From Ruminococcus sp. (GTDB lineage Bacteria > Bacillota_I > Bacilli_A > RF39 > UBA660): DNA of 64,000 bases. The notes under the pieces were generated by a model. It saw nothing but the letters and a program-made list of their open reading frames with translations, did no database searches and was not told the origin of the DNA. Position numbers and translations under genes: made by a program. This document shows positions 1,127 to 64,000 of the stretch, piece by piece (position 1 is the first letter of the stretch; each line of letters opens with the position of its first letter). The stretch covers positions 51,392 to 115,391 of the forward strand of contig JAMPHW010000001.1 in the NCBI GenBank assembly GCA_023663235.1, read 5' to 3'.

Positions 1127-1249
1127 TCTCCGTTTAACTATGGAAACGCTAACGTGTTCATTGTGTGGTCGGATGGCTACCTCACCACCAACAACGTGAA
1201 CAACACGCGAGGTGTGCGTCCAATATCCTTTTATCACTCATTTATTTGA
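1127..1249 (+). pseudogene. Orphan GC-rich C-terminal fragment of the paralog family (SPFNYGNANVFIVWSDGYLTTNNVNNTRGVRPISFYHSFI*)
   Basis: Short frame 70 bp after paralog A, opened by an in-frame TAG. It matches the family C-terminal architecture (..DGYL..x9..G[IV]RP[VI]..) but has GC-rich codon usage unlike its 27%-GC surroundings. Contains the 12-mer ggtgtgcgtcca (1211..1222), also present at the window end. Confidence 0.4.
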
Positions 1250-1403
1250 TTAAGGTTAAATAAAGAAGAATTAGGATACAAGATTAATCCTTAAGTTATA
1301 ATACTTTAAAAAAATAACACTGATGTTTTATGTCCTGTATATAAAACTATTACAGTGTTTTTTATTTTTTATAAAAAATTATAAATTTACACAATAATTC
1401 CAA

Positions 1404-3583: not shown

Positions 3584-4960
3584 TTAAAACCTAAAATAAA
3601 TAAAAGGGTTAAATGAACTTGAAATTATTCTTGCAATACATAATATAAAAATAAAAAACAATCCAAGCACACTCATAAATTCTATCATTTTATTTATTTT
3701 TCCTTTCTTAAGTTTTTCTAACATATTCTTTATAAAAGGTCCTATACCAATAAATGAAAAAATTAAAATAACTAAATTATTCCTCAAAAAGTATATAGCT
3801 TCATTATTAATAAACTCACTACCAACACCAAATAAACCTTTTATAAATATCCAGAGTTTATGTAAATCGGTAACATTAAAAATCACAAAACTTATTAGAA
3901 CAATAATAAACGTATATAAATGTGAGATTATTCCTTTTTTCAAGAATTTTTTTAAAATAAACTTTTCTAAAATTAAAAACATAAAAAAGTATAATCCCCA
4001 TAAAATAAAATTCCAACTAGCTCCATGCCATAAACCAGTTAAAAGCCATACAATAAATATATTTCTTATATTTTTAAATAAAGAACATCTGTTACCGCCT
4101 AAAGGTATATAAATATAATCTCTAAAAAAGCTTGATAAAGATATATGCCATCTTCGCCAAAAATCAGTAATTGAAGATGCTATTAAAGGATAATTAAAAT
4201 TTTCTTTAAACTGAAATCCAAGCATTTTCCCAAGACCTATCGCCATATCTGAATATCCCGAAAAATCATAATATATTTGAAATGTAAAAATAAGTGCTAC
4301 TAACCAGTATGATACAGTTGTTAAATTAGAATTTAATATAGCCCCATAAGCATTATATAAAGTATCCGCAATTAAAACTTTCTTACCTAGTCCTAAAATA
4401 AATCTTGTAACACCATCACTAAAATTACTAAAATTCTCTTCTCTATTTTTTAACTCCTTATTTACATCTTTATATCTAACAATTGGTCCAGCTATTAATT
4501 GAGGAAATAAAGAAATATAAGTGCAATAATTAAGAAAATTTTGCTCACCTTTAACATCTTTTTTATAAACATCAATTATATAACTTAAATTTTGAAATGT
4601 AAAAAAACTTATTCCTAAAGGTAAAATAATGTTTAAATCAAACCTGTTTAAACCCAAAATATTCGTAAAATTATCTAAGAAAAAACCTGTATATTTATAA
4701 TAGAATAAAATTCCTAAATTAAAAATAATACCTAATACTAAAAAGCTTTTCTTTCTCTTTCTATCAATTAAAATACCTAATATATAATTTACTAAACAAG
4801 TAAAAAGTAATAATATAACATAATTCTTTTCACCAAAATAATAGAAAATCAAACTAAATACTAATAATACTTTATTTCGAAACCTTTTAGGAACTAAAAA
4901 ATAAAAAAGTAATAATAAAGGCAAAAAAAAGAAGAGAAAATTAATACTTGAAAATACCAT
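3584..4960 (-). CDS. Membrane-bound O-acyltransferase (MBOAT; AlgI/DltB family)
   Basis: Multi-TM protein with the MBOAT signature region WRRWHISLSSFFRDYIYIPLGGNR and a conserved His. Confidence 0.85.
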   Translation of the reverse strand: MVFSSINFLFFFLPLLLLFYFLVPKRFRNKVLLVFSLIFYYFGEKNYVILLLFTCLVNYILGILIDRKRKKSFLVLGIIFNLGILFYYKYTGFFLDNFTNILGLNRFDLNIILPLGISFFTFQNLSYIIDVYKKDVKGEQNFLNYCTYISLFPQLIAGPIVRYKDVNKELKNREENFSNFSDGVTRFILGLGKKVLIADTLYNAYGAILNSNLTTVSYWLVALIFTFQIYYDFSGYSDMAIGLGKMLGFQFKENFNYPLIASSITDFWRRWHISLSSFFRDYIYIPLGGNRCSLFKNIRNIFIVWLLTGLWHGASWNFILWGLYFFMFLILEKFILKKFLKKGIISHLYTFIIVLISFVIFNVTDLHKLWIFIKGLFGVGSEFINNEAIYFLRNNLVILIFSFIGIGPFIKNMLEKLKKGKINKMIEFMSVLGLFFIFILCIARIISSSFNPFIYFRF

Positions 4961-6928: not shown

Positions 6929-9900
6929 TTAAGCCTTCTTAATTTTCTTCGCTCTTACAAAAGCAATACCTAATCCAACGGTTAATACTCCTAGACTTGC
7001 AATATACCATATCATATTATCGCTATCTTTCTCTTGAACACTATCATTAGTATCTTTATACTTAATTATAATATCTCCTAAAGAAGTAGTCCTAAATTCA
7101 ATTGTACCATTATCAATTTTAGTATTAGTAACTTTTATTAAAGCATTATTTTTTATCATATATATACTGTCAAACTCTTTATTTGGATTTAAACTAACTC
7201 TTATTGTTAAACTACTATTTTTTAGTTTTATTTCTTCATTTTTAGCATCAACAACTGCTACTTTAAATACCTCACACTCTTTACCTAACTCGTTCTCTAA
7301 ACTACTATCTAGAATTTTTTCTTGAACAATTAAACTTTCAACTTTTCCTAAACCTGTACCTTTAATTACTATACCATTATTACCAAATTCTCTAACACCA
7401 TCATTTTCATTTGATAAATTATCATTGTTAGTATTTTCGGAGTTATTAACATTGTCTTGATTTGGTGTATTAGATGAAATATTATTATTAGTACTATTAT
7501 CTATATTTGAAACATTATTATTTGTACTTTCATTATTAGTGTTATTGCTATTATTTGGTTTGTTTGCACTTCCATTATTAGTATTATTATTACTAGTATT
7601 TGGTTTATTTGTACTTCCATTATTAGTATTATTATTACTAGTATTTGGTTTATTTGTACTTTCGCTACTTGAATTAGAATTATTATTTGAGTTTTCACTT
7701 ATAGAAGTAATAACTGCTGTTACAATACCCTCATTTCCAGCCTTATCATAAAACTTAATAGGATATGTTCCATTCTTCGTATAAATATATGTTCCATTAC
7801 CAAATTCATAAGTAATTTCTTCACTTGGATTTACTACTTTAACTAATACCATATTAGAACTTGATTTATCATAATAAAGACTAGCACTTGGATTTATTTT
7901 ATCAATATAATCAACTTTAGCTGTCGCTCTTCCTTTGTTTCCTTTAGAATCTTCATATTCAAAAGTAAATTCTCCATTATCCTTGAAAGTATAAGAATTA
8001 CTTCCATTATTATTAGTAATTTTTACATTTTTTCTATCAAATTCAATTACTGCTGTTACATCTTGATTTGTTAAACTAGTTTCACTATAATATATTTTTG
8101 GTATCACTTTATCTTCAATAATCCAATCTACTTTAGCTGTAATACTACCCTTATTTCCTCTAATATCTTCATATTCAAAAGTAAACTCACCATTCTTTAT
8201 AAAGGTATATTTATTGCTACCATTATTATTAGTAACTTTTACTCTACTTCTGTTAAATTCAATAGTTGCTACAACATCATCATAAGTTGAAGTGTTTATA
8301 TCATAAGTTATAGTAGCTATAGCTGGACTTTCGTTAATTACAGATACAATCGCTGTAGTTTCTCCCACATTCCCTGCTGCATCTACATATCTAAATGTAT
8401 ATTCTCCATTTTTAATAAATTCATGTTTAAAAGGATTTATATTCATTACATAGTTATTATTTATGTCTGTAACATTACCTTCACTATCAACTTTATATCC
8501 ATCCACAACGTTTCCATTAGAATCAATTAAATTTCCTGCATCATCAGAAGTATAATCACTATCATTAATTATTGTTACCACCTCATTAGGTCTTAATATT
8601 GCCATTACACTATCAGTTTCTTTACTAATAACAATTTCTATTTCAGCAGTTGGAGCTACTTTATCTATCCAATCTACTTTAGCATCTAATGTCCCTACAT
8701 TTCCAGCTTCATCTACGTATTCAAAAGTAAATTCGCCATTTTCTTTAAATGTATATGTGAGTTTACCCTCATTGTTGGTTACTGTCACATTCTCTTTATT
8801 AAATGTAATTGTTGCTGTTACATCTTGATTTGTTAATTCAGTTTTATCATAAGTTATCTCTGCTACTGGTGCATCTTTATCAATCCATGTAACTTCTACT
8901 AAAGTACTTCCTGTATTTCCAGCTTTATCAACATATTCAAAAGTAAATTCTCCATTCTCTGTAAATGTATATTCATTTTTACCTTCATTGTTAGTTATTG
9001 TTACATTTTCTTTATCAAATGTAATCGTAGCAGTTACGTCTTGATTTGTTAATTCAGTTTTATCATAAGTTATCTCTGCTACTGGTGCATCTTTATCAAT
9101 CCATGTAACTTCTACTAAAGTACTTCCTGTATTCCCGGCTTCATCGACATATTCAAAGGTAAATTCGCCATTTTCTGTAAATGTATATTCATTTTTACCC
9201 TCGTTATTAGTTACTGTTACATTTTCTTTATCAAATGTAATTGTCGCTGTTACATTTTGATTAGTCTTTTCGCTTATATTATAAGTTACTGTTCCTACTG
9301 GAACTACTTTATCTATCCAATCAACTTTAGCGTCTAATGTCCCTACATTTCCAGCTTCATCTACGTATTCAAAAGTAAAGTCTCCATTTTCTGTAAATGT
9401 ATATGTGAGTTTACCTTCATTATTAGTTACTGTTACATTTTCTTTATCAAATGTAATTGTTGCAGTTACGTCTTGATTTGTTAATTCAGTTTTATCATAA
9501 GTTACCTCTGCTACTGGTGCCTCTTTATCAATCCATGTAACTTCTACTAAAGTACTTCCTACATTTCCTGCTTCATCGACATATTCAAAAGCAAACTCGC
9601 CATTTTCTGTAAATGTATATTCATTTTTACCTTCATTGTTAGTTACTGTTACATTCTCTTTATCAAATGTAATTGTCGCTGTTACATCTTGATTAGTCTT
9701 TTCACTTATATCATAAGTTACTGTTCCTACTGGAACTTCTTTATCAATCCATGTAACTTCTACTAAAGTACTTCCTACATTTCCTGCTTCATCTACGTAT
9801 TCAAAAGTAAATTCTCCATTTTCTGTAAATGTATATTCATTTTTACCTTCATTATTAGTTATTGTTACATTTTCTTTATCAAATGTAATTGTTGCTGTGA

Positions 9901-12250
9901 TATCTTGATTAGTTTTTTCAGTTTTATCATAAGTTACAGTTCCTATTGGGGCTATTTTATCTATCCAATCAACTGTTACTTCTTTTATAGCTTTATTTCC
10001 TCTAATATCTACATATTCAAAAGTAAATGAACCATTCTCACTAAAAATATAAGTATTTTTTCCATCATTATTAGTAATTTTTACTCTACTTCTATCAAAA
10101 GTAATCGATACTTCAACATCTTGATTTGTTAATTCTTCTATAGAATAAGTTATTGTAGATTCTACTAAGTTTTCATTAATAGTATTTATTGTAATTGTAG
10201 AAGATCCTATATTTCCAACTTCATCTACAAAATCGAAGGTATATTCACCATTCTTAATATATTCCCTTTTAAGTGGACTTATATTAACAATATAATTGTT
10301 TTCACTATCTGTTAAATAATTACCTTTATCATCAATTATATAACCCTTATCATCTACACTATATCCATCAAGTATATTATTATCTTTATCTAATAAACTA
10401 CCATCTTCATCAAGAGTATAAATGTTACCATTAGTAATTGTTGTGTCTTCACTTGGTGTTAATTCAGTTACAACACTATCAATTATACCATTATCTTCAA
10501 CAACAGGAACAGATGTTACCTCACCTGTAGGAATTGTTTTATCAATCCATGTAACTTCTACTAAAGTACTTCCTATATTTCCAGCTTTATCAACATACTC
10601 AAAAGTAAATTCTCCATTTTCTGTAAATGTATATTCATTTTTACCTTCATTATTAGTTACTGTTACATTTTCTTTATCAAATGTAATTGTCGCTGTTACA
10701 TCTTGATTAGTCTTTTCACTTATATCATAAGTTACTGTTCCTACTGGAACTTCTTTATCAATCCATGTAACTTCTACTAAAGTACTTCCTACATTTCCTG
10801 CTTCATCGACATATTCAAAAGTAAATTCTTCATTTTCTGTAAATGTATATTCGTTTTTACCTTCATTATTAGTTACTGTTGCTCCATTATTATCACTAAG
10901 CAAAATAGTTACAATAACATCTTGATTTGTTAATTCAGTTATATTATATGATATATCTGCAATTGGAGGTATTTTATCTATCCAACCTACTTTTGCTTCC
11001 ATTGTTCCCACATTACCTGCTTCATCAACATATTCAAAAGTAAATTTACCATTCGCTGCAAAAGTATAAGTATCACTACCTTCATTGTTAGTTATTGTTA
11101 CATTTTCTTTATCAAAAGTAATTGTTGCCGTTACATCTTGATTTGTTAGATATTTAGTACTATATGTTATTGTTCCTACTGGTAAAGTTTTATCTATCCA
11201 ACTAACAGTTGCCGTTGCAGATCCTTTATTTCCAGCTTCATCTTCATATTCAAACGTAAATTCTCCATTTTCTTCGAAAACATATGTATTTTTACCACCA
11301 TTATTTGTAATTATAACTCCATTATCATCTTCAAGAGTAATAGTCGCTATAACATCTTTATTTGTTAAACTAGTTCTATCATAAGTTACTGTGGCAACAG
11401 GTGCAGTCTTATCTATCCAATTTACTCTTGCAGTTGCAGTCCCTTTATTTCCATCGCTATCAATAAGATTAAAAGTAAACTCACCATTCTCTGTAAAAGT
11501 ATAAGTATTTCTATTATCGTTATTTTCAACCTCTATATTATCATCAAAAGATATAGTAGCAGTTACATCTTTGTTAGTTACTTCACTTATATCATAAGTT
11601 ATATAACTATTAATATAATTACTAGGAACTAATTTAGCATCAGCAATAGAAGAATGATCTAAAGTAATATCAAAGTAAGGATCAACATATATTTTTAAAT
11701 AATTATACTCTTCTACGTTTACATCTACATCTATTGTTCCTGTCTTTGTTGTAACATTACCAGTTCTTTTTAATACATCCCAAGTTTTACCATCTTTAGA
11801 ACCTGATATTTGGAACCAAACACAAGCAGGACTTTCTAAATCTTGAGATGCATCAATACCTAATTTAGCTATAAATCTTGTATATTTATTAGTATATTTA
11901 GAAATATCATAAACTACTTCTCCTTTAGCATGTATTCCAAGACCTTTAGCATAATATATTCGTTTTCCATTACGATATAAACTAATAGTATCACCATTAA
12001 TATTAGTATCCTTATAAATATAAGGACTACCCCATCCATTATAAGATAATGCATCAATATAATTTAAATCTGATAAATATTTTACTTTACCATATTCTTC
12101 TGCATTAGTCGATAAACTATATGGAGTACCTAAAATACTCTCACTTACATTACCTAAAGTTGGATTATTATATGATATAGTTATATATGATATAATACCA
12201 CATATTAATCCGCCTAAAACAAATACACTTTTACTGTTTTTCATAACCAA
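6929..12250 (-). CDS. Giant surface protein: signal peptide, NPCBM-like carbohydrate-binding domain, about 17 tandem 72-aa Ig-like repeats, Asn-rich linker, C-terminal domain and C-terminal TM anchor
   Basis: NPCBM-like segment GLGIHAKGEVVYDISKYTNKYTRFIAKLGIDASQD. Repeat unit VTWIDKxxPVGTVTYDISEKTNQDVTATITFDKENVTVTNNEGKNEYTFTENGEFTFEYVDEAGNVGSTLVE. C-terminal hydrophobic helix plus KKIKKA; no LPXTG. Confidence 0.8.
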   Translation of the reverse strand: MVMKNSKSVFVLGGLICGIISYITISYNNPTLGNVSESILGTPYSLSTNAEEYGKVKYLSDLNYIDALSYNGWGSPYIYKDTNINGDTISLYRNGKRIYYAKGLGIHAKGEVVYDISKYTNKYTRFIAKLGIDASQDLESPACVWFQISGSKDGKTWDVLKRTGNVTTKTGTIDVDVNVEEYNYLKIYVDPYFDITLDHSSIADAKLVPSNYINSYITYDISEVTNKDVTATISFDDNIEVENNDNRNTYTFTENGEFTFNLIDSDGNKGTATARVNWIDKTAPVATVTYDRTSLTNKDVIATITLEDDNGVIITNNGGKNTYVFEENGEFTFEYEDEAGNKGSATATVSWIDKTLPVGTITYSTKYLTNQDVTATITFDKENVTITNNEGSDTYTFAANGKFTFEYVDEAGNVGTMEAKVGWIDKIPPIADISYNITELTNQDVIVTILLSDNNGATVTNNEGKNEYTFTENEEFTFEYVDEAGNVGSTLVEVTWIDKEVPVGTVTYDISEKTNQDVTATITFDKENVTVTNNEGKNEYTFTENGEFTFEYVDKAGNIGSTLVEVTWIDKTIPTGEVTSVPVVEDNGIIDSVVTELTPSEDTTITNGNIYTLDEDGSLLDKDNNILDGYSVDDKGYIIDDKGNYLTDSENNYIVNISPLKREYIKNGEYTFDFVDEVGNIGSSTITINTINENLVESTITYSIEELTNQDVEVSITFDRSRVKITNNDGKNTYIFSENGSFTFEYVDIRGNKAIKEVTVDWIDKIAPIGTVTYDKTEKTNQDITATITFDKENVTITNNEGKNEYTFTENGEFTFEYVDEAGNVGSTLVEVTWIDKEVPVGTVTYDISEKTNQDVTATITFDKENVTVTNNEGKNEYTFTENGEFAFEYVDEAGNVGSTLVEVTWIDKEAPVAEVTYDKTELTNQDVTATITFDKENVTVTNNEGKLTYTFTENGDFTFEYVDEAGNVGTLDAKVDWIDKVVPVGTVTYNISEKTNQNVTATITFDKENVTVTNNEGKNEYTFTENGEFTFEYVDEAGNTGSTLVEVTWIDKDAPVAEITYDKTELTNQDVTATITFDKENVTITNNEGKNEYTFTENGEFTFEYVDKAGNTGSTLVEVTWIDKDAPVAEITYDKTELTNQDVTATITFNKENVTVTNNEGKLTYTFKENGEFTFEYVDEAGNVGTLDAKVDWIDKVAPTAEIEIVISKETDSVMAILRPNEVVTIINDSDYTSDDAGNLIDSNGNVVDGYKVDSEGNVTDINNNYVMNINPFKHEFIKNGEYTFRYVDAAGNVGETTAIVSVINESPAIATITYDINTSTYDDVVATIEFNRSRVKVTNNNGSNKYTFIKNGEFTFEYEDIRGNKGSITAKVDWIIEDKVIPKIYYSETSLTNQDVTAVIEFDRKNVKITNNNGSNSYTFKDNGEFTFEYEDSKGNKGRATAKVDYIDKINPSASLYYDKSSSNMVLVKVVNPSEEITYEFGNGTYIYTKNGTYPIKFYDKAGNEGIVTAVITSISENSNNNSNSSSESTNKPNTSNNNTNNGSTNKPNTSNNNTNNGSANKPNNSNNTNNESTNNNVSNIDNSTNNNISSNTPNQDNVNNSENTNNDNLSNENDGVREFGNNGIVIKGTGLGKVESLIVQEKILDSSLENELGKECEVFKVAVVDAKNEEIKLKNSSLTIRVSLNPNKEFDSIYMIKNNALIKVTNTKIDNGTIEFRTTSLGDIIIKYKDTNDSVQEKDSDNMIWYIASLGVLTVGLGIAFVRAKKIKKA
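7480..7700. repeat. Asn-rich low-complexity tandem repeat (coding linker)
   Basis: Repeated NKPNTSNNNTNNGST units. They generate spurious shadow ORFs on both strands. Confidence 0.6.
7950..11640. repeat. Array of 216-bp tandem coding repeats (72-aa Ig-like domains), many copies near-identical at nucleotide level
   Basis: The motif ccatgtaacttctactaaagtacttcc recurs every 216 bp (for example 8885 and 9101). Confidence 0.8.
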
Positions 12251-12352: not shown

Positions 12353-15300
12353 TTAATTATTTTTTTTGTATATAACTGCTCCAATACCAACAATTAAAAC
12401 TACACCACTAGCTATAAACCAGAAAATATTATTATTCTTTACTTCATTTTTTTCTAAAGAATCATTATCTTCTTCTGTTGCATCTTTTTCTTTATATTTA
12501 ATAACCACATCACCTAAAGAAGAAGCCTTAAATTGAATAGTATTTTTGTTAACTTTTGTATATTTTATTTTTTCTAAAGCATCGTTTTGAAGCATATAAA
12601 CGCTATCAAATTCTTTTAAAGTATTTAAACTAACTGTTATGGTTAAATCAATATCTTTAATGTCAATAGTTTCTTTATTAGCATTAACAAAACTTAAACC
12701 AAATAATTCACTTTCTTTTCCAAATTCTTTTTCTAAAACTGCATTTAAAGCTTTCTTATTAACTTTAATACTATTAATATTAGCTAAATCTTTCTTTGGA
12801 ACTTTAACTTTAATAGTACCAGAAGTAAATTCTCTATATCCTGAACTATCAACATTATTTGAATTATTATTATTGTTATCTAAATCATTGTTAACTGAAT
12901 CATTATTGTTAGTATCATTTGAATTATTAACATTATTTCCTTGATTATTAGAATTTTGATTGTTATTTACATTATTATTAGTTGTATTGTTAGGGTTATT
13001 GCTACCATGATTAGTATTAGTATTATTATTGTTATTATTGTTACTATTATTTTGATTATTATTAGTATTATCATTCTTATCAGATGTATCATCATTATTA
13101 ACATAGTCCTCAACTAACCAATTAATAAATACTCTTACTGTCCCTATATTACCAGCTTTATCATAGAAATTAATCGTATAAACTCCATTTTTAGTATAAA
13201 TATAAGTTCCACTACCACTCTCAAAAGTAATTTCTTCACTTGGATTAATAACTTTTACTAAAGCAATATTTTTACTTGATTTATCATAAGAAATACTAGC
13301 AGTAGGTGCTTTTTTATCTATCCAATCTACAGTAGCTGTCATTGATCCTTTATTTCCTGAATCATCTATAAATTGGAAAGTAAATGAACCATTTTCTGTA
13401 AATATATACGCATTACTTCCATTATTATTAGTAATTATTACATTCTCTTTATCAAATTCAATAACTGCTGTTACATCTTTATTAGTTAACTCTTTAAAAT
13501 CGTAATAAATCTTAGCAATAGGAAGATCTGAATCTATCCAATCAACCTTAGCAGTTGCAGTTCCTTTATTTCCTGCTCTATCAACAAATTCAAATGTAAA
13601 TTCTCCATTAGCTATAAATTCATATTGGAAAGTATTAATATTTGTAATATAGTTACCGTTAGCATCTGTTACATTACCTTTGTCATCAACTGTATATCCG
13701 TTAAGAATATTGCCATCTTTATCAACTAAATTACCATCAACATCAACACTAAAATCTCCATTATTCGTAACTATGACATCTTCACTAGGTTTTAAAGTTG
13801 CAATTACACTCTTATTAGTTCTATCTGTTGTACTATACTCTATTGTTGCTGTTGGAGCTTCTCTATCAATCCATGTTACTTTAGCTGTTGCTGTTCCAAC
13901 TTGTCCTCTTTTACCATCTATTATTTCTGCAAACTCAAATGTAAATTCTCCATTTTCATAGAAAGTATAAGTATCACTACCATTATTATTAATAATCTCA
14001 ATATCTGTACTAGGATTTATTAATCTTGCTACAACATTTTCTCTAGTTGGCTCTGTTTCACTATAACCTATACTAACTGTTGGAATATATTTTTTAGTAG
14101 TATCTTGATATAAATTAAATTCTCTTGCTGTAAACCAGTTACCATTAGTTCTATCAGCTTTTATTTTAACATATTGAACTAATTTAGAATTTTCTAAATC
14201 AAAGCTCTTTGTATTAGCTATTGCTTGTTCATTTGTATTAACTTGACTTGGACTATAAGTAATTCCTTTTTTCTCTGCTAATAGTTCAAAGTTTTCACCA
14301 TCCATACTTCCATAAATAGTTCCATCAACAATTTTACCATTTCCACCACCAGCAGGAACAAATTCTACCGCTGATAAATATACTGGATTATCTAATTTAA
14401 TTGTAATATAACGTTCTGTATCACTACCATTCCAAGCTGAATGCCATCTTGTATTATAATTACCATCTATTGCATAAGTAGCACTTCCGCCATTATTTAC
14501 AGCTTGTGTTGATACACTATGTATACTTAAATGAGATACTGGAATATATTTTCTTGTATCAGGTTGATTATCTTCTGTAAAAGTAAATGTTCCTGAATCA
14601 CTTGGAATCGCATTACCTGTTGCGCCTACTCTTACATATAACGTTTTATTACCAGTATTATCTGGAGAAGCTACTGCATAAGAAGTCCAAGGATCATTTT
14701 CATTATTTCTCCATTCATAAGTTAAGTTTATCCCTACTACTCTATTTTCTAAATCATTAGCAAATAGAAGGTTTGATAAAGTACCTTTTACAATATCAAT
14801 CGTATAAGCAGGGACATCAAACGCTAAACCATCAATATATATTTGGATATCATCATCAATATTAATCTTTGCTATCTCATCAGGAGTTAACTGTACAGAA
14901 TGTTCAACTGTACCTACAGATTTTGTTTTTCCACCATCTAAACTATAATGCCATTGAATATCTGTAAATGCATCATAAGAACTTGATATAACAATTTTAC
15001 CTGCATTATCACCATCAAAAGAGAATGTAGCTAATTCACCATTAGTTTTTCCTAAAATTATTTGAGCAATTTCACGACATGCTACATCTTGCCAAATATC
15101 ATTTTTTGTTGCTTTATAAGCTCTATTAAGTGCTGCAAATTCTTTTTGATCAATATCTACTCTATGAACACCATTTAAGTATGGTCTTATAACCTTAATT
15201 AAATCATTCATTGCCATTGGATAATAAGTATAACTGTCTATTATGTCTAAAGCTAATTGATACCAATCTGCACTTGTTTTGTTTAAAGCTTTAAACATTT

Positions 15301-17161
15301 GAATTTTATAATCATAACTATCTAAATTAATATCATTTATATTTAAAGATTTATTATATACATCTAGTTTAACTTCATTATCACTATAAGAATTAGCTAT
15401 TAAATTGTAATATAAAGATTTTTTATAAACATCGTAATTATTAAGATTAGCCTGAGCAAGATATGTATATCCTGAACTATTTCCAGCACCTGATGCATTA
15501 ACTGGTTGATTAGTAAAGTATTTATTTGCCCAGTCAAAAATTGTTCTATTTCTATTTCCACCATACCATGTTGTAGAAGTTCTTCCCCAACCAAAGATAT
15601 TACCTGCTATATTCCATGTACCTTTACCTGTACCATCACTATTTTCGGCGATATAATATAACGCACTCTCATGTCCTGGTTGATAAGATCCAATTGATGG
15701 ACGTCCCATATTTAAAAATACACTTTTAATAGTACGCGCTTGATTCCAACAAATTCCACCTTCTTGCATAACCATCCAATATCTCGTTGTATTATCTGCA
15801 AAAGGAACACCATTTTCTGTTAAATGCCACTTTGAGTCATATTTTTCTTTATTTGCTGGATCATAAAGATGTGGTTTTGCACTCATACTATAATTTGGCG
15901 AAACATATTGAACATAAGAATATACGCCTGTAGCATAATTTTTAGCTTTACCAATATAACTTAACCAAACTAATTCATCTGCTCTTGTTCCATCTTGCAT
16001 CATATTACGGAAAAATTCAACATGATACGTTTTCCAACCATTAGCATATAATAACAATCCTTCATCATATTGTTTTTTTATTACTCTAAATCTTTCAATA
16101 TAATCATAACTAGGACTTTTGTGACTAAAAGTGAGTGGTGATGAAACTCTATCAGTTGAATATGCTGCAGCCATACCAATCATCATCTTTTGATATACAT
16201 CACCATTAGTTGTTCTTAAAGAACTTTTATATTCTGTATATAAATCACTTAAAGTATTTATAAATTTAATTGAATCTGCAATTTCTCCAACTTCAATAAT
16301 TTGTTCTAATACTACATTATCACTTAAAATCCAATTAAGAACTTCAACTTTTTTAGGATTAAGATCAACTAAATATTGAATATTTCCAAATCCCATTTTT
16401 CTAACAAATTCTCTTTCAAGAACTAATTTATAATTATTTTTATAATTATAATCTACAGTTTGTTCTTTTAAAATATTATCATAATAAGTTAATTTATTAA
16501 TTTTATCATAAGATCCACCAGTAGCTACATAATTACTTGTAACTAATTTAGCATCAGCAATAACCCCATGATCTGAGGAATTTGCCCCATTTGGATCAAC
16601 ATATATTCTTAAATATTTTTTACCTTGTACATTTAAATCAACATTTATTGCTTCTTGTCCAGGTGTAATTACATCTGTTTTTAATAAAGAAGTCCAATTA
16701 GAACCATCATCTGATACATATATTTGAAACCAAATACTAGCAGTTGATGTTTTTGAAGCATCTATTCCAATTTTAGCATTAAAACGTGTAAAAAGATTAG
16801 AATATTGTGAAAGATCATAAATAACTTGACCTTTAGCATGAAGCCCAATGCCCTTAGCAAAAGGAACTTTTTCACCATCAACTATTAAACGAAGTATACC
16901 TTCATCTTGATTTTTATCTAACTGTATAGGATGCCCAGACCACCCATTATAAGACCAATTATTAGTAGTAATGTATTCTAAATCAGATAAATATATCTTA
17001 TTTGGATCCGATTTAGCTAAAGCTGCTAAATTGTAAACTTCACTACTATAATTACTATTTAAATTTCCATAAGTAATATTAGGATAAAATATAGTTATTA
17101 AAAAAATAATACTACAAATTAATCCTGTTAATATTAAAATTGTTTTATTGTTTTTCTTCAT
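12353..17161 (-). CDS. Giant surface protein: NPCBM domain, central putative catalytic domain (possible Cys/His active site), F5/8-type-C discoidin domain, about 6 Ig-like repeats, Asn-rich linker and C-terminal TM anchor
   Basis: NPCBM-like FAKGIGLHAKGQVIYDLSQYSNLFTRFNAKIGIDAS. Discoidin-like AIDGNYNTRWHSAWNG...YLSAVEFVP. Central segment GGICWNQARTIKSVFLNMGRPSIGSYQPGHESA. Terminal repeats are homologous to those of the neighbouring gene. Confidence 0.8.
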   Translation of the reverse strand: MKKNNKTILILTGLICSIIFLITIFYPNITYGNLNSNYSSEVYNLAALAKSDPNKIYLSDLEYITTNNWSYNGWSGHPIQLDKNQDEGILRLIVDGEKVPFAKGIGLHAKGQVIYDLSQYSNLFTRFNAKIGIDASKTSTASIWFQIYVSDDGSNWTSLLKTDVITPGQEAINVDLNVQGKKYLRIYVDPNGANSSDHGVIADAKLVTSNYVATGGSYDKINKLTYYDNILKEQTVDYNYKNNYKLVLEREFVRKMGFGNIQYLVDLNPKKVEVLNWILSDNVVLEQIIEVGEIADSIKFINTLSDLYTEYKSSLRTTNGDVYQKMMIGMAAAYSTDRVSSPLTFSHKSPSYDYIERFRVIKKQYDEGLLLYANGWKTYHVEFFRNMMQDGTRADELVWLSYIGKAKNYATGVYSYVQYVSPNYSMSAKPHLYDPANKEKYDSKWHLTENGVPFADNTTRYWMVMQEGGICWNQARTIKSVFLNMGRPSIGSYQPGHESALYYIAENSDGTGKGTWNIAGNIFGWGRTSTTWYGGNRNRTIFDWANKYFTNQPVNASGAGNSSGYTYLAQANLNNYDVYKKSLYYNLIANSYSDNEVKLDVYNKSLNINDINLDSYDYKIQMFKALNKTSADWYQLALDIIDSYTYYPMAMNDLIKVIRPYLNGVHRVDIDQKEFAALNRAYKATKNDIWQDVACREIAQIILGKTNGELATFSFDGDNAGKIVISSSYDAFTDIQWHYSLDGGKTKSVGTVEHSVQLTPDEIAKINIDDDIQIYIDGLAFDVPAYTIDIVKGTLSNLLFANDLENRVVGINLTYEWRNNENDPWTSYAVASPDNTGNKTLYVRVGATGNAIPSDSGTFTFTEDNQPDTRKYIPVSHLSIHSVSTQAVNNGGSATYAIDGNYNTRWHSAWNGSDTERYITIKLDNPVYLSAVEFVPAGGGNGKIVDGTIYGSMDGENFELLAEKKGITYSPSQVNTNEQAIANTKSFDLENSKLVQYVKIKADRTNGNWFTAREFNLYQDTTKKYIPTVSIGYSETEPTRENVVARLINPSTDIEIINNNGSDTYTFYENGEFTFEFAEIIDGKRGQVGTATAKVTWIDREAPTATIEYSTTDRTNKSVIATLKPSEDVIVTNNGDFSVDVDGNLVDKDGNILNGYTVDDKGNVTDANGNYITNINTFQYEFIANGEFTFEFVDRAGNKGTATAKVDWIDSDLPIAKIYYDFKELTNKDVTAVIEFDKENVIITNNNGSNAYIFTENGSFTFQFIDDSGNKGSMTATVDWIDKKAPTASISYDKSSKNIALVKVINPSEEITFESGSGTYIYTKNGVYTINFYDKAGNIGTVRVFINWLVEDYVNNDDTSDKNDNTNNNQNNSNNNNNNNTNTNHGSNNPNNTTNNNVNNNQNSNNQGNNVNNSNDTNNNDSVNNDLDNNNNNSNNVDSSGYREFTSGTIKVKVPKKDLANINSIKVNKKALNAVLEKEFGKESELFGLSFVNANKETIDIKDIDLTITVSLNTLKEFDSVYMLQNDALEKIKYTKVNKNTIQFKASSLGDVVIKYKEKDATEEDNDSLEKNEVKNNNIFWFIASGVVLIVGIGAVIYKKNN
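12900..14070. repeat. Tandem Ig-like coding repeats plus Asn-rich linker, homologous to the 7950..11640 array
   Basis: Units VTWIDREAPTATIEYSTTDRTNKSVIATL..., VDWIDSDLPIAKIYYDFKELTNKDVTAVIEFDKENV... Low-complexity N-rich stretch around 12840..13090. Confidence 0.7.
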
Positions 17162-21959: not shown

Positions 21960-23388
21960 TTAAGAAAGGACTTTAAAAGGGTTTGATTGTGTACCATCGC
22001 CTGTAAAAGCAACATCAGAACGTAAATTAATTACAGGTCTTATGCCTCTATCTTTTGTTACATCATTATAATCCGTTCCCATGTGCCCTGGCATATGTAC
22101 TATTACTACACCAGCTCCCTTAAGGGAATTACTTAAATGAAATTGAAAGGGGTGACATAGTCCAATATTCTATGTTAGTATATAAATAATATTTCTTATT
22201 ATAAGTTAACTCTTCCACTTTTTGCCAATAAATTCCACCAGCATAGCTAACATCATCTGACGTAATTAAACCTACAGGATTACCTAATATTCTATTTCCT
22301 TTATTTGAGTTCTTATATGTATACAAATCTAGATCACTTTCACAATGATAAGTCGCATTAGTTCCTGTTCCGCAATTTCCACCACTAGGACATAAAAGTA
22401 CACTTCTATAATATGTATTTACTTTGCCTATTCCAATTCCAGCTTTTGTCCCAAAAGTATCTGCATAGGGAGTTCTGTCCCCGCAGAATCCAGCATTTAA
22501 ATCTATTTTGTCAAAATAATTTGTTCCCTCTTTTATATTAGAATTTTTAAACCAATCGTCTAAAAATAAATAAGCTAATGAAGGTTGCTTTAAACCGCGT
22601 AATACATCCTGTTCATACCAATATCCAACATACTTATTGTCATCGCCATTTTCATTAAAGGCAATTTTTCCAATTATTGTTTCTTCTCCTGTTGCTTGTG
22701 GTTCTAATTTATTTCCATTTTCATCTTTTGTTCTTCCTTGATATATTATTCTAATTGAGCCATCTCCATTTATTCTTATTATTCGCCAATAATATCCGCC
22801 AAATTCTACCCAGTTATCTAATGGATTTCCTGCAAAATAATAAGTTGTCCCATCATCATCTTCACCTTCATATATAACACCAATTGTTGTATTCTCTATT
22901 GTCTTATTAAATGTTCCTTCTTCTCTTGTCTTTCTTCCTGTATAATGCGTTTCTAATAACTCGCTCATTGTTTTTGCATCAATTATATCTTTATCTAAAT
23001 AGATGAAACACTTATCTCCTTTAGATATTCCTCTAAAAGTATGTATTCCTCCTATTGTTTCTAATATAGCATTTGTATCTTTATTTTCTTTTTTACAATT
23101 GCTTCCTTTGCAACAATATGTTTCTTCTTTATTTATTGTATAACCAGTAGGTAAGGTCGTATCTTTAGATAATTCTTGATAATTTCCGTCACCTTCATTA
23201 ATATACATTGCCATTACATTTACATCATAAGGACTAGATACTACTTTACCCTCTGTTAATGGAATTGATGCAGTCATTCTATAATTTGCTTTTGATGTTA
23301 TAAATGTGACCGTTATAGTAAGTACTACTACTATTATTAGACCACACCAAAAATGCTTTTTGCTATTTTTATTTCTTTCAAATTTCAT
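21960..23388 (-). pseudogene. Secreted protein paralog B, frameshifted near the C-terminus (ORF 22129..23388 plus a downstream frame)
   Basis: The annotated ORF ends ..YWTMSPLSISFK*. The adjacent frame continues ..HLSNSLKGAGVVIVHMPGHMGTDYNDVTKDRGIRPVINLRSDVAFTGDGTQSNPFKVLS*, matching the C-termini of paralogs A and C. A 1-nt indel in a homopolymer near 22131..22150 is implied. Confidence 0.6.
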
Positions 23389-27454: not shown

Positions 27455-28807
27455 CTAAACTAAGTTTACTTTAAATGGATTATTTATTGTTCCATCACCA
27501 GTTAAAGTAACATCAGAACGTAGGTTAATTACAGGATAAATACCCCATGAATGAACTGTATTTCCATAAACAATTTCTCCTGTATTATTAACAATAAACA
27601 CATGAGAAGCAACTGCCGAAAACGGCGTCATCGTCCAATAATGACCACCACTATATAAATAATTATTTTCTATCCTAGTATCATTATTTCCATAAACAAG
27701 TCCAGCATAGCTTGCTTCATCAGCTGTTATTAATCCAACTGGATTTTCTAACACTCTGTTTCCTTTATTTGAATTTTTATATGTATATAAATCATCATTT
27801 ACCTGACACTTTAATGTAGGAGATTTTATTTTGCCATAAGCAAGTCTAACATTAGCAGCATAAACTGTATTTATTATATCAATACCACCTAAGCCATCTA
27901 TATATTCTGTACCAGAACTAGGCTGTCTATCTCCGCAAAATCCAGCATTTACATCTATTTTATCAAAAAATGAAGTACCCTGTCTTATATTTGAACTACT
28001 AAACCAACTATTTAAAGCATTATATAAAAGTGATGGCGTTTCTATACCATGAACTTTATGTTGCTCATAAAAATACCCAACATATTTATTATCATCATTA
28101 TTAGAATTAAATTGACTTATTATTCCAGTTGAGTGCATTAACCCATCATTAACTTCTCCATAATAAATTAATCTAATTGTACCATCACCATTTATTCTAA
28201 TAATACGCCAATAATATCCACCAAATTCTACCCAATTATCTAATGGTTCTCCAGCATAATAATAACTAGTTCCATCATCGTCAGGCGCAACATATACTGT
28301 TTTGTCTATTGGCGAATTATCGCTCGTTACCGCCTTATCAAACGGTAAATAATCATTTCTTCTAATATTAATATTACTAATATTAGAAAGTACATATTGA
28401 CACGCCACTCCACAATTATCATTCAACTTTTCTAAATAGAGAATACATTTAGAAGACTTACTTATCCCACTAAAAGTATGATTACCCATTTCATCAGTAT
28501 ATAATTTAACATCAACATCTTTATTATTTTTATTAGCCCCCTTATAACAATAACTTTTATTTTCATTTATTCTATAACCACTAGGTATTATAGTATTAAC
28601 ATCTTGTTCTACATTATCAAGATACAAAGCTACAATATTTATATCATAAGGACTTGATACAACTTTTCCTTCTGTTAATGGAATTGATGCAGTCATACGA
28701 TAATTTGCCTTACTTCCTATAAAATTTACTGTAACAGTAAGTACTACTACCATTATTAAGCCACACAAAAAATACTTCTTGCTATTAATATTTCTTTTTA
28801 ATTTCAT
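27455..28807 (-). CDS. Secreted protein paralog C
   Basis: The N-terminal 65 aa (signal anchor, ..SKANYRMTASIPLTEGKVVSSPYD) are about 80% identical to paralog B. Core YYYAGEPLDNWVEFGGYYWRIIRINGDGTIRLIYYG. C-terminus WGIYPVINLRSDVTLTGDGTINNPFKVNLV. Confidence 0.65.
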   Translation of the reverse strand: MKLKRNINSKKYFLCGLIMVVVLTVTVNFIGSKANYRMTASIPLTEGKVVSSPYDINIVALYLDNVEQDVNTIIPSGYRINENKSYCYKGANKNNKDVDVKLYTDEMGNHTFSGISKSSKCILYLEKLNDNCGVACQYVLSNISNINIRRNDYLPFDKAVTSDNSPIDKTVYVAPDDDGTSYYYAGEPLDNWVEFGGYYWRIIRINGDGTIRLIYYGEVNDGLMHSTGIISQFNSNNDDNKYVGYFYEQHKVHGIETPSLLYNALNSWFSSSNIRQGTSFFDKIDVNAGFCGDRQPSSGTEYIDGLGGIDIINTVYAANVRLAYGKIKSPTLKCQVNDDLYTYKNSNKGNRVLENPVGLITADEASYAGLVYGNNDTRIENNYLYSGGHYWTMTPFSAVASHVFIVNNTGEIVYGNTVHSWGIYPVINLRSDVTLTGDGTINNPFKVNLV

Positions 28808-28968: not shown

Positions 28969-29433
28969 GTGAATATTATGCATTATAGCGCAAAACTACA
29001 ATATCTAAGAGAAAAATTCGATTTAACTCAAACAGAAGCTGGAAAAATAATCAACCTAGATAGTGGCACATATAGTAATTACGAACATGAAGTGATATTA
29101 ATTCCTTTAAAACATTTAAATACACTATGTAATTATTACAATGTATCATTAGACTACATTTTTTCCTTTACAGAAGAAGTAAATTACAAAAATAGTGATA
29201 AAAATATAGATAAGAAAAAATCAGGAACAAGATTAAAAGAATTTAGAAAAGATAATAAATTAACACAAATTAAGTTAGCTAAAATTTTAAATATTGGTAA
29301 TGGAACAATTGCAGGATACGAAACTGGTAATTATTTAATAGCAACACCTTTCCTCTACACAATCTGTTCTAAATATCATATTTCTGCTGACTATCTCCTT
29401 GGTAAAACAGATAACCCAAAATACTTTAATTAA
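28969..29433 (+). CDS. Tandem double-HTH XRE-family regulator
   Basis: Two HTH_3-like segments (..LTQTEAGKIINLDSGTYSNYE.. and ..LTQIKLAKILNIGNGTIAGYETG..). Divergent from paralog C. Confidence 0.7.
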   Translation: MNIMHYSAKLQYLREKFDLTQTEAGKIINLDSGTYSNYEHEVILIPLKHLNTLCNYYNVSLDYIFSFTEEVNYKNSDKNIDKKKSGTRLKEFRKDNKLTQIKLAKILNIGNGTIAGYETGNYLIATPFLYTICSKYHISADYLLGKTDNPKYFN

Positions 29434-29439
29434 TTTTAA

Positions 29440-29475
29440 AACCTCATCTCTTTTTAAGAGATGAGGCTTTTATTA
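29440..29475. terminator. Bidirectional terminator between the regulator and leuS
   Basis: Hairpin cctcatctcttt-ttaa-gagatgagg followed by a T-run. Confidence 0.6.
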
Positions 29476-32319
29476 TCTTACTACAATATTAACAATTCTT
29501 CCCTTAATAACAATAACTTTAACAATTTCTTTACCATCAATATGCTTTTTAACATTATCTTCTTGTAAAGCTTTTTCTTTAATTGCATCCTCGTTATCAA
29601 GAGCATTTATTGTTACTTCTCCCCTAAGTTTACCATTTACTTGAACTCCGATAGTAAGTTCATTATCAATTGTTTTAGCTTCCTCATAAGTAGGCCAATC
29701 CATTTCAACAATTCTTTTAGTAAATCCGAGTTCTTCATTTAATTCTTCAGTTATATGAGGTGCTATTGGATTTAATAAGACTAATAAAGTTTGATAATCT
29801 TTCTTTGTAATATTTTCTTTTTCTTCATAAGCATTAGTTAAGATCATTAAACTAGATACTGCTGTATTATATTTCATTGTAGCTAAATCATTAGTAACTT
29901 TCTTAATAGTTTTATGAATTATATTTAAAAGAGAACTTGTATATTCATTACCATCTACTACTTTATTTTTTAATCTTTCAACTTTATCTAAGAAACGTTT
30001 ACACCCCTTTAGCCCATTATCACTCCATGTTGCATCTTTTTCATAATCGCCAATAAATAGTTCATAAGTTCTAAGAGCATCTGCGCCATATAATTTAACC
30101 ATATCATCAGGATTAATAACATTTCCTCTAGACTTACTCATTTTCTCTCCATTAGAACCTAAAATCATTCCATGAGCCACTCTCTTTTTAAATGGTTCTG
30201 GTGTTGGAACTAAACCTTGGTCATAAAGGAATTGATGCCAAAATCTTGCATATAATAAATGTCTTGTCGCATGTTCCATACCACCATTGTAGTAATCAAC
30301 CATACCCCAATATTTTAAAGCATCTTGACCTACAAATTCTTCATTATTATGAGCATCCATATATCTTAACCAATACCAACTTGAACCCGCCCAGTTAGGC
30401 ATAGTATCTGTTTCTCTTTCTGCATGACCACCACATTTAGGACAAGTAGTATTAACCCAATCAGTTATATTAGCTAAAGGCGACTCTCCTGTATCTGTTG
30501 GTTCATAATGTGCAACTGTTGGTAACAATACTGGTAATTCTTCTTCTGGAACTGGCACCCATCCACATTTATCACAATATACCATTGGAATTGGTTCGCC
30601 CCAGAATCTTTGACGTGAAAATATCCAATCTTGTAAACGATAATTAGTTTTTTTAATTCCAATTTTTTTATCTGTTAAATAATCAAGCATCTTATTAATA
30701 GCGTCTTCTTTATTTAAACCATCAAGAAACTCTGAATTAATATGAACGCCTTCATCAGTTAAAGCACCTTCACCGTTTATTACTCTTTCTGCATCGTATT
30801 TATGAGCTTGTGTTGTAAGCGTATCAATTAATTTATCACCATCTACCCAAACTACATCTGCTATATCTTGCTCTTCTTTTGCTATTTCCACTTGCTCTAA
30901 ACTATTTAATCTACCAATAATCGTATGACTTCTAATATGTCTATTTACATCTTTATGAGCAGCATAGAAATTATCATAATAAATAAAATCCATTTCTTTT
31001 ATTGAAGCTATATCTGTATAACCAGTTTCTTCTTTAACTTCTCTAATGCCTGCTTCAACAACACTTTCATTATCTTCAATACCACCCATAACAAAAGTTA
31101 CCCAATCAAATTTCTTATTATGTACACATAAATATTTATCCTCTATTGGATGCTTTAGTATAACATTAACAACTTCTCTATTTGTTGTTGGTTTATCATC
31201 TCTTATTTTAGAAGTACCTGTTCCATTAAAAGATTTAGCAATAACTTGTATAATAGGAATATTAAACTTTTTAGCAAAATCATAATCTCTATCATCATGT
31301 GCTGGTACAGCCATTATAGCTCCTGTTCCATAACTAGCTAAAACATAATCACTAATATAAATTGGAATTTCTGTATTATTAACAGGATTTATTGCAACTA
31401 ATCCTTCTAGTTTAACACCTGTTTTTTCTTTAGTTGCATCTGTTCTTTCAATTTCACTTTTTTCTTTAGCTTCATTTTGATACTTAACAACTTCATCTAA
31501 ATTTTTAATTCTGTCTTTATATTTCTCTAATAATTGATGTTCTGGTGACATAACCATAAAAGTTGCTCCAAATAATGTATCACATCTTGTTGTAAAAACT
31601 TTTAAAGTATCTTCTGTATCTTTTATTCTAAAGTCTACCTCTGCTCCAATACTCTTACCTATCCAATTAACTTGAGCTATTTTAATTTTATCTTCAAATT
31701 CTGTTTCTTTAAGTCCTTCTAATAATCTATCAGCATAACTACTCATTTTAAGTATCCATTGTGATTTTAATTTTTTAGTAACAGGACTTCCACATCTCTC
31801 GCATACTCCACCAGCCGCATCTTCATTAGATAGTCCTGTTTTACAATTAGGACACCAATTAATCTCTTTTTCAGCTTTATAAGCCATATCTTTCTTTACA
31901 AATTGTAAAAATTGCCATTGTGTCCATTTGTAATATTCTGGATCTGTTGTTGAAAATTCTCTCGACCAATCAAAAGACATACCTAAAGATTTTATTTGCC
32001 CTTTAAATGTTCCAATATTTTCTTTAACTGCATCAGCTGGATATATATGATTCTTTATTGCATATTGTTCTGCAGGAGCTCCAAAAGCATCCCATCCCAT
32101 TGGAAATAGAACATTATATCCTTGTAATCTTTTCATTCTAGCCATTGCATCAAGTGCTGAATAACTTCTAACATGACCTACATGTAACCCTGAACCACTT
32201 GGGTAAGGAAATTCTACTAAAATATAATATTTTTCTTTATCACTATTATTTTTAGCTTCAAAATAATGTCCTTTATCCCATATATCTTGCCATTTTTTCT
32301 CTATCTTATTTGTCTCCAT
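29473..32319 (-). CDS. leuS: Leucyl-tRNA synthetase with an inserted Nudix-hydrolase domain
   Basis: HIGH-region ..PYPSGSGLHVGHV.., editing motifs TTRCDT and AHDDRD, KMSKS. A roughly 150-aa insertion (residues 365-515) carries a perfect Nudix box GGIEDNESVVEAGIREVKEETGY. Confidence 0.95.
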   Translation of the reverse strand: METNKIEKKWQDIWDKGHYFEAKNNSDKEKYYILVEFPYPSGSGLHVGHVRSYSALDAMARMKRLQGYNVLFPMGWDAFGAPAEQYAIKNHIYPADAVKENIGTFKGQIKSLGMSFDWSREFSTTDPEYYKWTQWQFLQFVKKDMAYKAEKEINWCPNCKTGLSNEDAAGGVCERCGSPVTKKLKSQWILKMSSYADRLLEGLKETEFEDKIKIAQVNWIGKSIGAEVDFRIKDTEDTLKVFTTRCDTLFGATFMVMSPEHQLLEKYKDRIKNLDEVVKYQNEAKEKSEIERTDATKEKTGVKLEGLVAINPVNNTEIPIYISDYVLASYGTGAIMAVPAHDDRDYDFAKKFNIPIIQVIAKSFNGTGTSKIRDDKPTTNREVVNVILKHPIEDKYLCVHNKKFDWVTFVMGGIEDNESVVEAGIREVKEETGYTDIASIKEMDFIYYDNFYAAHKDVNRHIRSHTIIGRLNSLEQVEIAKEEQDIADVVWVDGDKLIDTLTTQAHKYDAERVINGEGALTDEGVHINSEFLDGLNKEDAINKMLDYLTDKKIGIKKTNYRLQDWIFSRQRFWGEPIPMVYCDKCGWVPVPEEELPVLLPTVAHYEPTDTGESPLANITDWVNTTCPKCGGHAERETDTMPNWAGSSWYWLRYMDAHNNEEFVGQDALKYWGMVDYYNGGMEHATRHLLYARFWHQFLYDQGLVPTPEPFKKRVAHGMILGSNGEKMSKSRGNVINPDDMVKLYGADALRTYELFIGDYEKDATWSDNGLKGCKRFLDKVERLKNKVVDGNEYTSSLLNIIHKTIKKVTNDLATMKYNTAVSSLMILTNAYEEKENITKKDYQTLLVLLNPIAPHITEELNEELGFTKRIVEMDWPTYEEAKTIDNELTIGVQVNGKLRGEVTINALDNEDAIKEKALQEDNVKKHIDGKEIVKVIVIKGRIVNIVVR

Positions 32320-63944: not shown

Positions 63945-64000
63945 TTACAGTTCATCAGTTGACAGTGTAATTACTGGACGCACACCAAACGCGTTGTCCA
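63945..64000 (-). CDS. 3' end of a gene continuing beyond the window (C-terminus ..NAFGVRPVITLSTDEL*), GC-rich
   Basis: Open frame on the minus strand to the window edge. Carries the 12-mer ggtgtgcgtcca and G-V-R-P-V-I-x-L like the secreted paralog family C-termini. Confidence 0.35.
   Translation of the reverse strand, partial: DNAFGVRPVITLSTDEL

Follow-up and report, generated by a model that had tools for sequence, protein, structure and literature searches.

A probable stand-alone template RNA gene of the diversity-generating retroelement type, from a multi-copy family in gut Firmicutes

Diversity-generating retroelements (DGRs) are understood as compact cassettes in which one template repeat (TR) lies next to the gene for one reverse transcriptase (RT), and the pipelines that detect them depend on that linkage. 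[quoted passage not shown] Surveyed DGRs have the TR beside the RT, and remote targets are possible but would be unexpected in phages for cellular DGRs (PMC5758913). Phage DGRs that target proteins with the domain DUF6273 likewise hold the TR between Avd and RT (bioRxiv 10.1101/2024.10.15.618418). Here we describe a 64,000-nt stretch of a Ruminococcus sp. genome (assembly GCA_023663235.1, contig JAMPHW010000001.1, positions 51,392 to 115,391; hereafter the window) in which a short, GC-rich and start-less reading frame at 1127-1249 is very probably part of a stand-alone DGR-type template RNA gene belonging to a multi-copy family.

The likeness to BPP-1 covers an adenine-rich template, a variable region (VR) at the 3′ end of a gene for a C-type-lectin fold, changes that fall only at template adenines (seen here for sister TRs), a GC-rich block that ends both TR and VR, and a structured RNA directly 3′ of the TR. 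The differences lie in the organization: each TR here has its own predicted promoter and terminator, the TRs are many (solo or in arrays of 6-16), a long-range helix is drawn around the TR, and no RT or Avd was found within 10-60 kb. The Faecalibacterium prophages Lelie, CP11 and Toutatis and the "tentaclin" phages are close in their targets, which are DUF6273 proteins with a C-terminal VR (PMC11792537, PMC10743442, bioRxiv 10.1101/2024.10.15.618418) and which, as here, are small single-domain proteins encoded in the phage genome. Those phages carry Avd-TR-RT, whereas the prophages here carry the target only, with matching TRs in host chromosomes. Chromosomal DGRs, such as that of Treponema denticola and others (PMC5758913), offer a further parallel in that one retroelement serves several genes far from the RT in trans, as we propose for the present case. 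Their targets are remote and the TR stays beside the RT, whereas here it is the templates that are scattered and present in many copies. In retrons, a dedicated structured non-coding RNA, msr-msd, templates a specialised RT, and terminal inverted repeats close the template in a helix. The RNA considered here is similar in being a structured template closed by a terminal helix; retron RNA, in contrast, lies beside its own RT, yields multicopy single-stranded DNA (msDNA), does not home into genes and undergoes no adenine mutation. Related units showed no sequence or Rfam similarity to retrons, and those from three loci (L085, L088 and L089) matched no Rfam family at E ≤ 1.

The frame at 1127-1249 (+ strand) consists of 41 open codons without a start codon, bounded by a TAG at 1124-1126 and a stop at 1247-1249, and translates as SPFNYGNANVFIVWSDGYLTTNNVNNTRGVRPISFYHSFI. 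It begins 68 nt after the stop codon (1056-1058) of gene A, the paralog downstream of which the preliminary description of this DNA had placed it. The GC content is 0.50 over 1125-1224 versus 0.19-0.24 in the adjoining sequence and about 0.28 across the window, and over 1127-1225 AAC accounts for 7 of 33 codons and A for 26 of 99 bases, figures that bear out the GC-rich composition and the Asn-rich variable stretch noted earlier. The recurrence of the 12-mer GGTGTGCGTCCA in inverted orientation was also correctly seen. This 12-mer has exactly two copies in the window, at 1211-1222 (+) and 63975-63986 (-), and no copy would be expected by chance, since none of 100 dinucleotide-preserving shuffles contained any match at ≤1 mismatch. 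The similarity around the two copies holds at 23 of 29 positions. The second copy does lie inside another GC-rich gene 3′ end, with the last 54 nt of the window having a GC content of 0.46 versus 0.28 adjoining and encoding ..DNAFGVRPVITLSTDEL*. The 12-mer is meaningful as the conserved GC-rich 3′ end that templates and VRs have in common. The variant GGTGTGCGTCCA is common to the TR and the phage VR of the source genome, and the other genomes examined carry GGTTTGCGCCCA, GGTGTGCGCCCA or GGTGTGCGACCA.

The coordinates first given for the fragment cover the template part and miss the rest of a unit that runs from approximately 1061 to 1366. This unit is best read as a gene from which a structured RNA is transcribed and not as a gene remnant, because its non-coding flanks are conserved with compensatory changes and it has a predicted promoter and terminator of its own. 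The sigma-70-like promoter (1061-1089, +) comprises a −35 element TTTACT at 1061-1066, a 17-nt spacer and a −10 element TATAAT at 1084-1089; it matches the consensus at 10 of 12 positions, is the sole promoter-like site in 900-1500 and predicts a transcription start near 1096-1097. The predicted non-coding template RNA of ~270 nt (1097-1366, +) is supported by a profile built from 19 units, which matches 1093-1390 end to end (nhmmer E 1e-65, 221 bits) as the only full copy in the window, and by a single-sequence fold (−66 kcal/mol, z −3.8) that agrees with the consensus structure. In the 19 copies, the parts follow one another in the order TATAAT box, GG(T/A)(T/A)AATCT at the predicted RNA 5′ end, GTCTCCG (the start of the protein module's Ser-Pro) and the Asn-rich cassette. 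The cassette ends in GGT(G/T)TGCG(C/T)CCAATA, after which come a conserved AT-rich segment of ~60 nt, a long hairpin and a T run. Many array units have a TATAAT box at the equivalent position, and conservation extends over ~170 nt of non-coding flank in 19 or more copies from several genomes. Within the unit in the window, the TR (1127-1225, +) is a start-less open frame and mirrors the variable module found at the C-terminus of DUF6273-type proteins; the core that corresponds to phage targets occupies 1148-1225, and the GC-rich 3′ end GGTGTGCGTCCA (1211-1222, +) is the block common to VRs and a candidate boundary like the initiation of mutagenic homing sites (IMH/IMH*) of DGRs.

Structure was assessed on the 19 aligned unit copies with RNAalifold and explicit pair counting, which yielded four helices. 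Over the 19 units, 97.5% of the cells in these helices are paired, and compensatory changes occur in 19 of the 32 pairs; none of 500 shuffles did as well, and partners that had been slid out of register paired in only 38-46% of cells. Helix P1 joins the extreme 5′ end of the RNA, GATTAATCT (1098-1106, +), to AGATTAATC (1281-1289, +), and so closes the loop that holds the TR and the scaffold. All nine of its pairs are formed in 19/19 units and four are changed on both sides, the arms reading GGTTAATCT/AGATTAATC in some units and GGAATATCT/AGATATTTC in others. The scaffold 3′ of the TR (1224-1278, +) consists of helix P2 (TATCCT at 1224-1229 with AGGATA at 1273-1278) around hairpin P3 (1237-1268), with both-sided changes at 4/6 pairs of P2 and 5/8 pairs of P3. 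The fourth helix belongs to a hairpin like an intrinsic terminator (1316-1366, +), in which AACACTG (1316-1322) pairs with CAGTGTT (1353-1359) ahead of a T run. Across units, six of its seven outer pairs have compensatory changes, and the stem appears as CATTG/CAATG, CACTG/CAGTG, AGCTG/CAGCT, AGTTG/CAACT or ACCG/CGGT. A simple terminator scan missed this hairpin, which is too poor in G-C pairs and has a long loop, and it is covariation that argues for it.

Relatives were sought with a pattern of the positions common to the window fragment and the VR of L001, an IMG/VR contig syntenic with the right end of the window, with adenines masked and one genome per species scanned. The search led to L085, an uncultured Bacilli metagenome-assembled genome (MAG) from mouse gut (8 kb of the array-carrying MGBC164908 was covered); two other matches in the scan, in GC-rich Proteobacteria, were judged to be chance. 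L085 carries an array of 15-16 head-to-tail units with a period of ~300 bp, each 70-78% identical to window 1148-1400, flanked by a family gene of the gene A type, whose GC-rich 3′ end adjoins it, and by the S10 ribosomal operon. Further arrays hold 9, 6 and 6 units (L101-L103), and there is also a divergent one. Solo units stand between housekeeping genes at L087, L088 and L098-L100, and on metagenome contigs upstream of rpsJ and between a prepilin-like gene and rpmA; another lies between a helix-turn-helix (HTH) gene and recG. A profile of the in-frame translations of the units retrieved 81 short open reading frames (ORFs), all gene calls on such units in assemblies from ENA, JGI and NCBI. 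The unit had no match in public phage and plasmid records, and the common TR/VR pattern had none in metagenomes in a first scan. These copies most likely represent an undescribed multi-copy RNA family, solo or in arrays of up to 16, far from any RT found.

Some features of the related loci deserve separate mention. Between spoVT and mfd there is a second flavour of unit with mini-ORFs of 59-63 aa beginning "MSP…" (L094 9990-10192, L095-L097, L104 3865-4069), which has the same promoter, the GGTTAATCT motif and an Asn-rich template-like stretch, and which has a full coding tail (RPVINL…NPYVV*) where the RNA scaffold otherwise stands; it could represent either an ancestral version of the unit or a further type of template. 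Units or arrays also occur just upstream of a small prepilin-type (N_methyl) gene that is followed by thymidine kinase (L088 832-1173, L101 11479-11820, L103 2176-2517), a gene context conserved among these loci. A gene of ~155 aa with a double HTH, which in the window (28969-29433, +) adjoins a gene A paralog termed paralog C, has equivalents at L098 3547-4014, L099 227-694 and L101 132-611; it directly precedes the template unit in L098 and L099, with a 450-aa gene alongside in L098, and it may be a regulator of the secreted family. On a 1.4-kb ENA contig, P0225, the 3′ end of a family gene continues into the tail of a template unit (…GLRPILFYNSKY), and this sequence may be a recombinant of a VR and a template unit. 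In L089 (OFFG01011542.1), which has two units, positions 1-2400 are a chimera with mouse DNA, where Rfam recognizes mir-1954, a Metazoa_SRP/B1-like element and mir-3473.

The DGR signature, namely differences between TR and VR at TR adenines, is present in the unit family. Over an 81-nt core, the phage gene of L001 differs from unit u2132 of L085 at nine positions, all of them template adenines. The same is true for 8/8 differences between the prophage gene of L090 and L085 unit u1819 and for 7/7 differences between the L085 host family gene and a TR of L089. Combined, the three pairs have 24 of 24 mismatches at adenines, which has a joint chance probability of ~3e-14 given that adenines make up only 23-31% of these templates. 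The likeness to a DGR template that the preliminary description had raised tentatively is thereby upheld by sister TRs. Compared with u2725 of its own array, the L085 host family gene has eight adenine differences and two others. Deamination of adenosine is excluded as the source, because A is changed to G, T and C alike. Proteins P0204 and P0205 have nine residue differences, all within the 22-residue VR and none outside it. In one host gene, the 5′ 42 nt of the VR fit one cassette type and the 3′ 77 nt another, with adenine-only mismatches in both, a pattern suggesting that different templates replaced parts of it one after the other; alternatively, both halves may come from a single unsampled cassette. 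In every example seen, cassettes end in CCA-ATA and VRs in CCA-GTA, and the homology ends there, so this fixed difference marks a candidate boundary of the IMH/IMH* type.

The gene cut by the right end of the window connects the template family to phages. A prophage spans ~40.8-64 kb on the minus strand, and the last positions of the window (63947-64000, -) hold the 3′ end of an early gene that by synteny with L001 encodes a DUF6273 protein of ~200-220 aa; its visible VR comprises the last ~29 nt and includes the 12-mer. In L001, a 221-aa gene (4107-4772) stands directly upstream of a homologue of window ORF 63528-63899, and its end, ...YGLRPVITLRTETL, parallels ...FGVRPVITLSTDEL at the window end. 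GC content rises sharply in an island over the final ~110 nt of the L001 gene, which is otherwise AT-rich; in five further prophage or viral copies, the gene end has a GC content of 0.44-0.54 versus 0.26-0.29 for the loci. The phage protein is assigned to DUF6273 by Pfam, and the C-terminal 52 columns of its family align with the gene A family at an hhalign probability of 98.6%. The VR falls at approximately 126-171 of the 172 positions of the DUF6273 profile, which is the C-terminal end of the domain. An AlphaFold (AF2) model with a pLDDT of 84 has a DUF6273-bearing IgA peptidase as its best PDB match, and C-type lectins match more weakly; DUF6273 has been described as C-lectin-like (PMC10743442) and has repeatedly been found as the target of DGRs, whose VR then occupies the C-terminal end of the domain (PMC11792537, PMC10743442, bioRxiv 10.1101/2024.10.15.618418). 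Among 94 phage orthologues the framework is identical (A.VF.V...G.L....V...G[LV]RP) and the Asn positions are hypervariable, and the VRs trace to different array cassettes, with NNNPVHNTYGL from u4266/u1819, NNGNVNSTTRGL from u4545 and VNVNGHL from u2725. The L001 contig is the sole match to the common TR/VR pattern in IMG/VR, where neither the window-end sequence nor the window TR (exact and A-to-N patterns) had a match. The prophage has no near relative in public phage and plasmid records, and the phage target protein also had no match there.

Three pairs of phage DUF6273 proteins (P0135/P0143, P0123/P0142 and P0124/P0198) have identical diversified VRs but backbones with 29-55 residue differences, which points either to recombination of VRs or gene ends between phages or to swaps of N-terminal modules. 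On the opposite strand of the prophage early region, a 223-aa ORF (62699-63370, +) has 260 IMG/VR relatives and resembles a widespread moron gene.

The host side is represented by gene A (NC483_00265, 488 aa; 3-1058, +, cut at the left end), which matches P0001 at 100% and has a weak DUF6273 match. Its family consists of secreted proteins of ~450-480 aa with an N-terminal signal anchor, and it numbers more than 60 paralogs in the source MAG, whose genome is estimated at ~1.5 Mb, and 6352 matches overall. The C-termini read YWT[MI]SP, then ~30 hypervariable residues, then G[IV]RPVINLRSD...NPYKV. Gene A was rejected as the cognate target of the window TR; its VR is ~63% identical, with mismatches at all four bases. 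The window contains two further paralogs. Paralog B (21966-23388, -) is a pseudogene whose ORF stops at 22129, and its C-terminal module (…GIRPVINLRSDVAFTGDGTQSNPFKVLS*) resumes in another frame at 22115-21966. Paralog C (27455-28807, -), of 450 aa, has an AT-rich, non-cognate variable module. Three genes upstream of gene A, NC483_00250 (P0023, 402 aa) is a lone C-terminal module fused to a whole paralog, and no other retrieved paralog has a variable module as template-like as its second one (…INANVFRVNSDGCLQGNNVNNERGIRPV).

Taken as a whole, the system works like a DGR: its differences point to adenine mutagenesis and its targets have the expected fold, but an RT adjacent to the TR is missing, both in the window and at the related loci. 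The mechanism that we propose would begin with an RNA of ~270 nt made from the unit's own promoter and ended by its own terminator, as the motifs and their conservation suggest. The TR (1127-1225) would be the 5′ third of this RNA. Helix P1, which brings the RNA 5′ end together with a site ~55 nt past the TR, and the two helices that abut the TR 3′ end make up a conserved scaffold, a structure that the covariation demonstrates. This scaffold may recruit and prime a DGR-type RT, in analogy to the spacer region in the DGR RNA of the Bordetella phage. This putative enzyme, encoded elsewhere in the genome, would copy the TR into cDNA with misincorporation opposite adenines, and the cDNA would then replace the VR at the 3′ end of genes carrying the common block GGT(G/T)TGCG(T/C)CCA. 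The targets would be C-terminal DUF6273 (C-type-lectin-like) modules, both in the large secreted host family and in the prophage early gene. Since the arrays hold 6-16 different TRs, one target could be rewritten from alternative templates, possibly as mosaics, in addition to being mutagenized. For the core of the window TR (1148-1225), the codon table gives ~3x10^9 possible peptide variants (15^5 x 4^6).

A number of results weigh against this reading and concern the enzyme, the target and the transcript. No ORF of at least 150 aa with an RT-like Y[AVILCMST]DD motif is present in the 64-kb window, and Pfam gave no RVT_1 or Avd match in the 28 ORFs to which it was applied, which include only some of the small ones. 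At the related loci (L085, L087-L113), no RT was seen up to 10 kb away from any of the units, arrays, prophage targets or viral contigs that were examined. Avd is not in the precomputed Pfam tables of these loci, which do not cover small ORFs exhaustively, and it is absent from about a quarter of known DGRs (PMC5758913). The prophages contain the target and neither a template unit nor an RT in the partial views at hand (integrase to terminase in L090-L092, target to lysis in the window). With none near units or targets, the RT must act in trans from an unlinked locus, and only the mutation pattern points to such an enzyme. As for the target, the three adenine-only pairs were drawn from other genomes and samples and not from the source MAG. 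Paralogs A, B and C are not cognate, and their mismatches to every cassette involve all four bases. Among 295 retrieved proteins, none fits the invariant codons of the window TR. Against the 29 visible nt of the window-end VR, the window TR has four differences at A and two that are not at A, both in one codon (CGA vs TTT). TTT is present at that codon position in some other cassettes, and the window-end gene was most likely last written from a sister template of the source genome, given the genome-specific 12-mer that it has in common with the window TR. Finally, transcription from the unit's own promoter, the ends of the RNA and any cDNA made from it are predictions.

These gaps would be accounted for if the unit were a relic, that is, a genuine family member that is unused here after loss of its RT or its target. 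The lack of an RT in 64 kb, the AT-rich and non-cognate variable modules of the three paralogs in the window and the lack of a compatible protein among those retrieved would all fit, and DGR targets that outlast the core DGR have been reported (PMC4891356; bioRxiv 10.1101/2024.10.15.618418). A relic would not be expected to have retained an intact promoter, all four helices and the terminator, to have kept every P1 pair and to score 221 bits over the full profile, and the genome-specific 12-mer also sits in the GC-rich VR of a prophage on the same contig. We regard disuse as unlikely, though it deserves to be kept in mind, and a template RNA gene as the probable identity of the unit.

The preliminary description had also offered a silent donor for gene conversion. 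A donor of this kind would switch the C-terminal module of the paralogs through RecA-type recombination in the style of Borrelia vls, Neisseria pilS and Treponema tprK. The parallel with Borrelia vlsE/vls, Neisseria pilE/pilS and T. pallidum tprK is real in so far as the arrays consist of partial copies of exactly the segment that varies in an expanded surface-protein family, with possible mosaics. Promoter-distal partial gene copies beside family genes, arrays of many different cassettes, the one VR that resembles a two-cassette mosaic and the identical VRs on diverged backbones can all be read in this way. Silent cassettes, however, are DNA that recombination copies faithfully, whereas the units here are transcription units with an RNA fold and differ from their recipients only at adenines (24/24). 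A DNA donor would have no use for a promoter, a covarying RNA scaffold and a terminator, and the codon usage of the cassette, at 50% GC, is unlike that of the paralogs in the window. On this evidence, the donor explanation is very improbable.

We give slightly less credence still to a regulatory small RNA or leader that would act on family mRNAs through their similarity and involve no reverse transcription. An independently transcribed, structured RNA of ~270 nt, as predicted here, beside family genes would suit such a role, but the common stretch has the same sense as the mRNAs and so is unable to pair with them, and the adenine-only divergence from gene ends would go unexplained. A functionless, decayed 3′ remnant of a horizontally acquired paralog, the other option in the preliminary description, would account for the missing start codon, the missing rest of the gene and the foreign base composition, but it hardly merits belief when ~170 nt of non-coding flank has compensatory changes in 19 or more copies, which is unexpected for a remnant, when the units have their own promoter and terminator and recur at unrelated loci and in arrays, and when 70-78% identity speaks against recent duplicates of a single remnant. 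Inversion of the shufflon kind was rejected; the cassettes have no conserved C-terminal tail, and the window cassette is in direct orientation.

Elsewhere in the window, the leucyl-tRNA synthetase (29473-32319, -; 948 aa) has a NUDIX domain inserted at residues 404-500 (Pfam E 2.9e-10), which is an unusual fusion, and two giant ORFs of 1773 and 1602 aa are adjacent at 6929-12250 and 12353-17161 (-).

Stand-alone, multiplied or arrayed DGR templates are not reported within the one searchable full-text library that was consulted. The arrangement that the template RNA family brings to mind is a distributed, multi-template DGR in which one unlinked RT serves arrayed and solo, independently transcribed and self-scaffolded RNAs in trans, any target with the common 3′ block could draw on alternative TRs, cassette choice and mosaics are combined with adenine mutagenesis, and either a host system rewrites a prophage gene or a phage exploits the host. 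We put this forward tentatively, as a serious possibility that falls somewhat short of being the probable one. If it is true, such an organization would be invisible to current DGR finders, because they anchor on the RT and seek a nearby TR, and DGR activity would be under-counted in gut Firmicutes. The compact, covarying scaffold of ~170 nt would be usable to probe how an RT recognizes a template in trans, which is relevant to DGR-based directed evolution. For the organisms themselves, the attainable diversity would be set by template choice combined with adenine mutagenesis, templates would be shared between a chromosome and its prophages, and part of the hypervariability of a secreted family of more than 60 paralogs would be explained.

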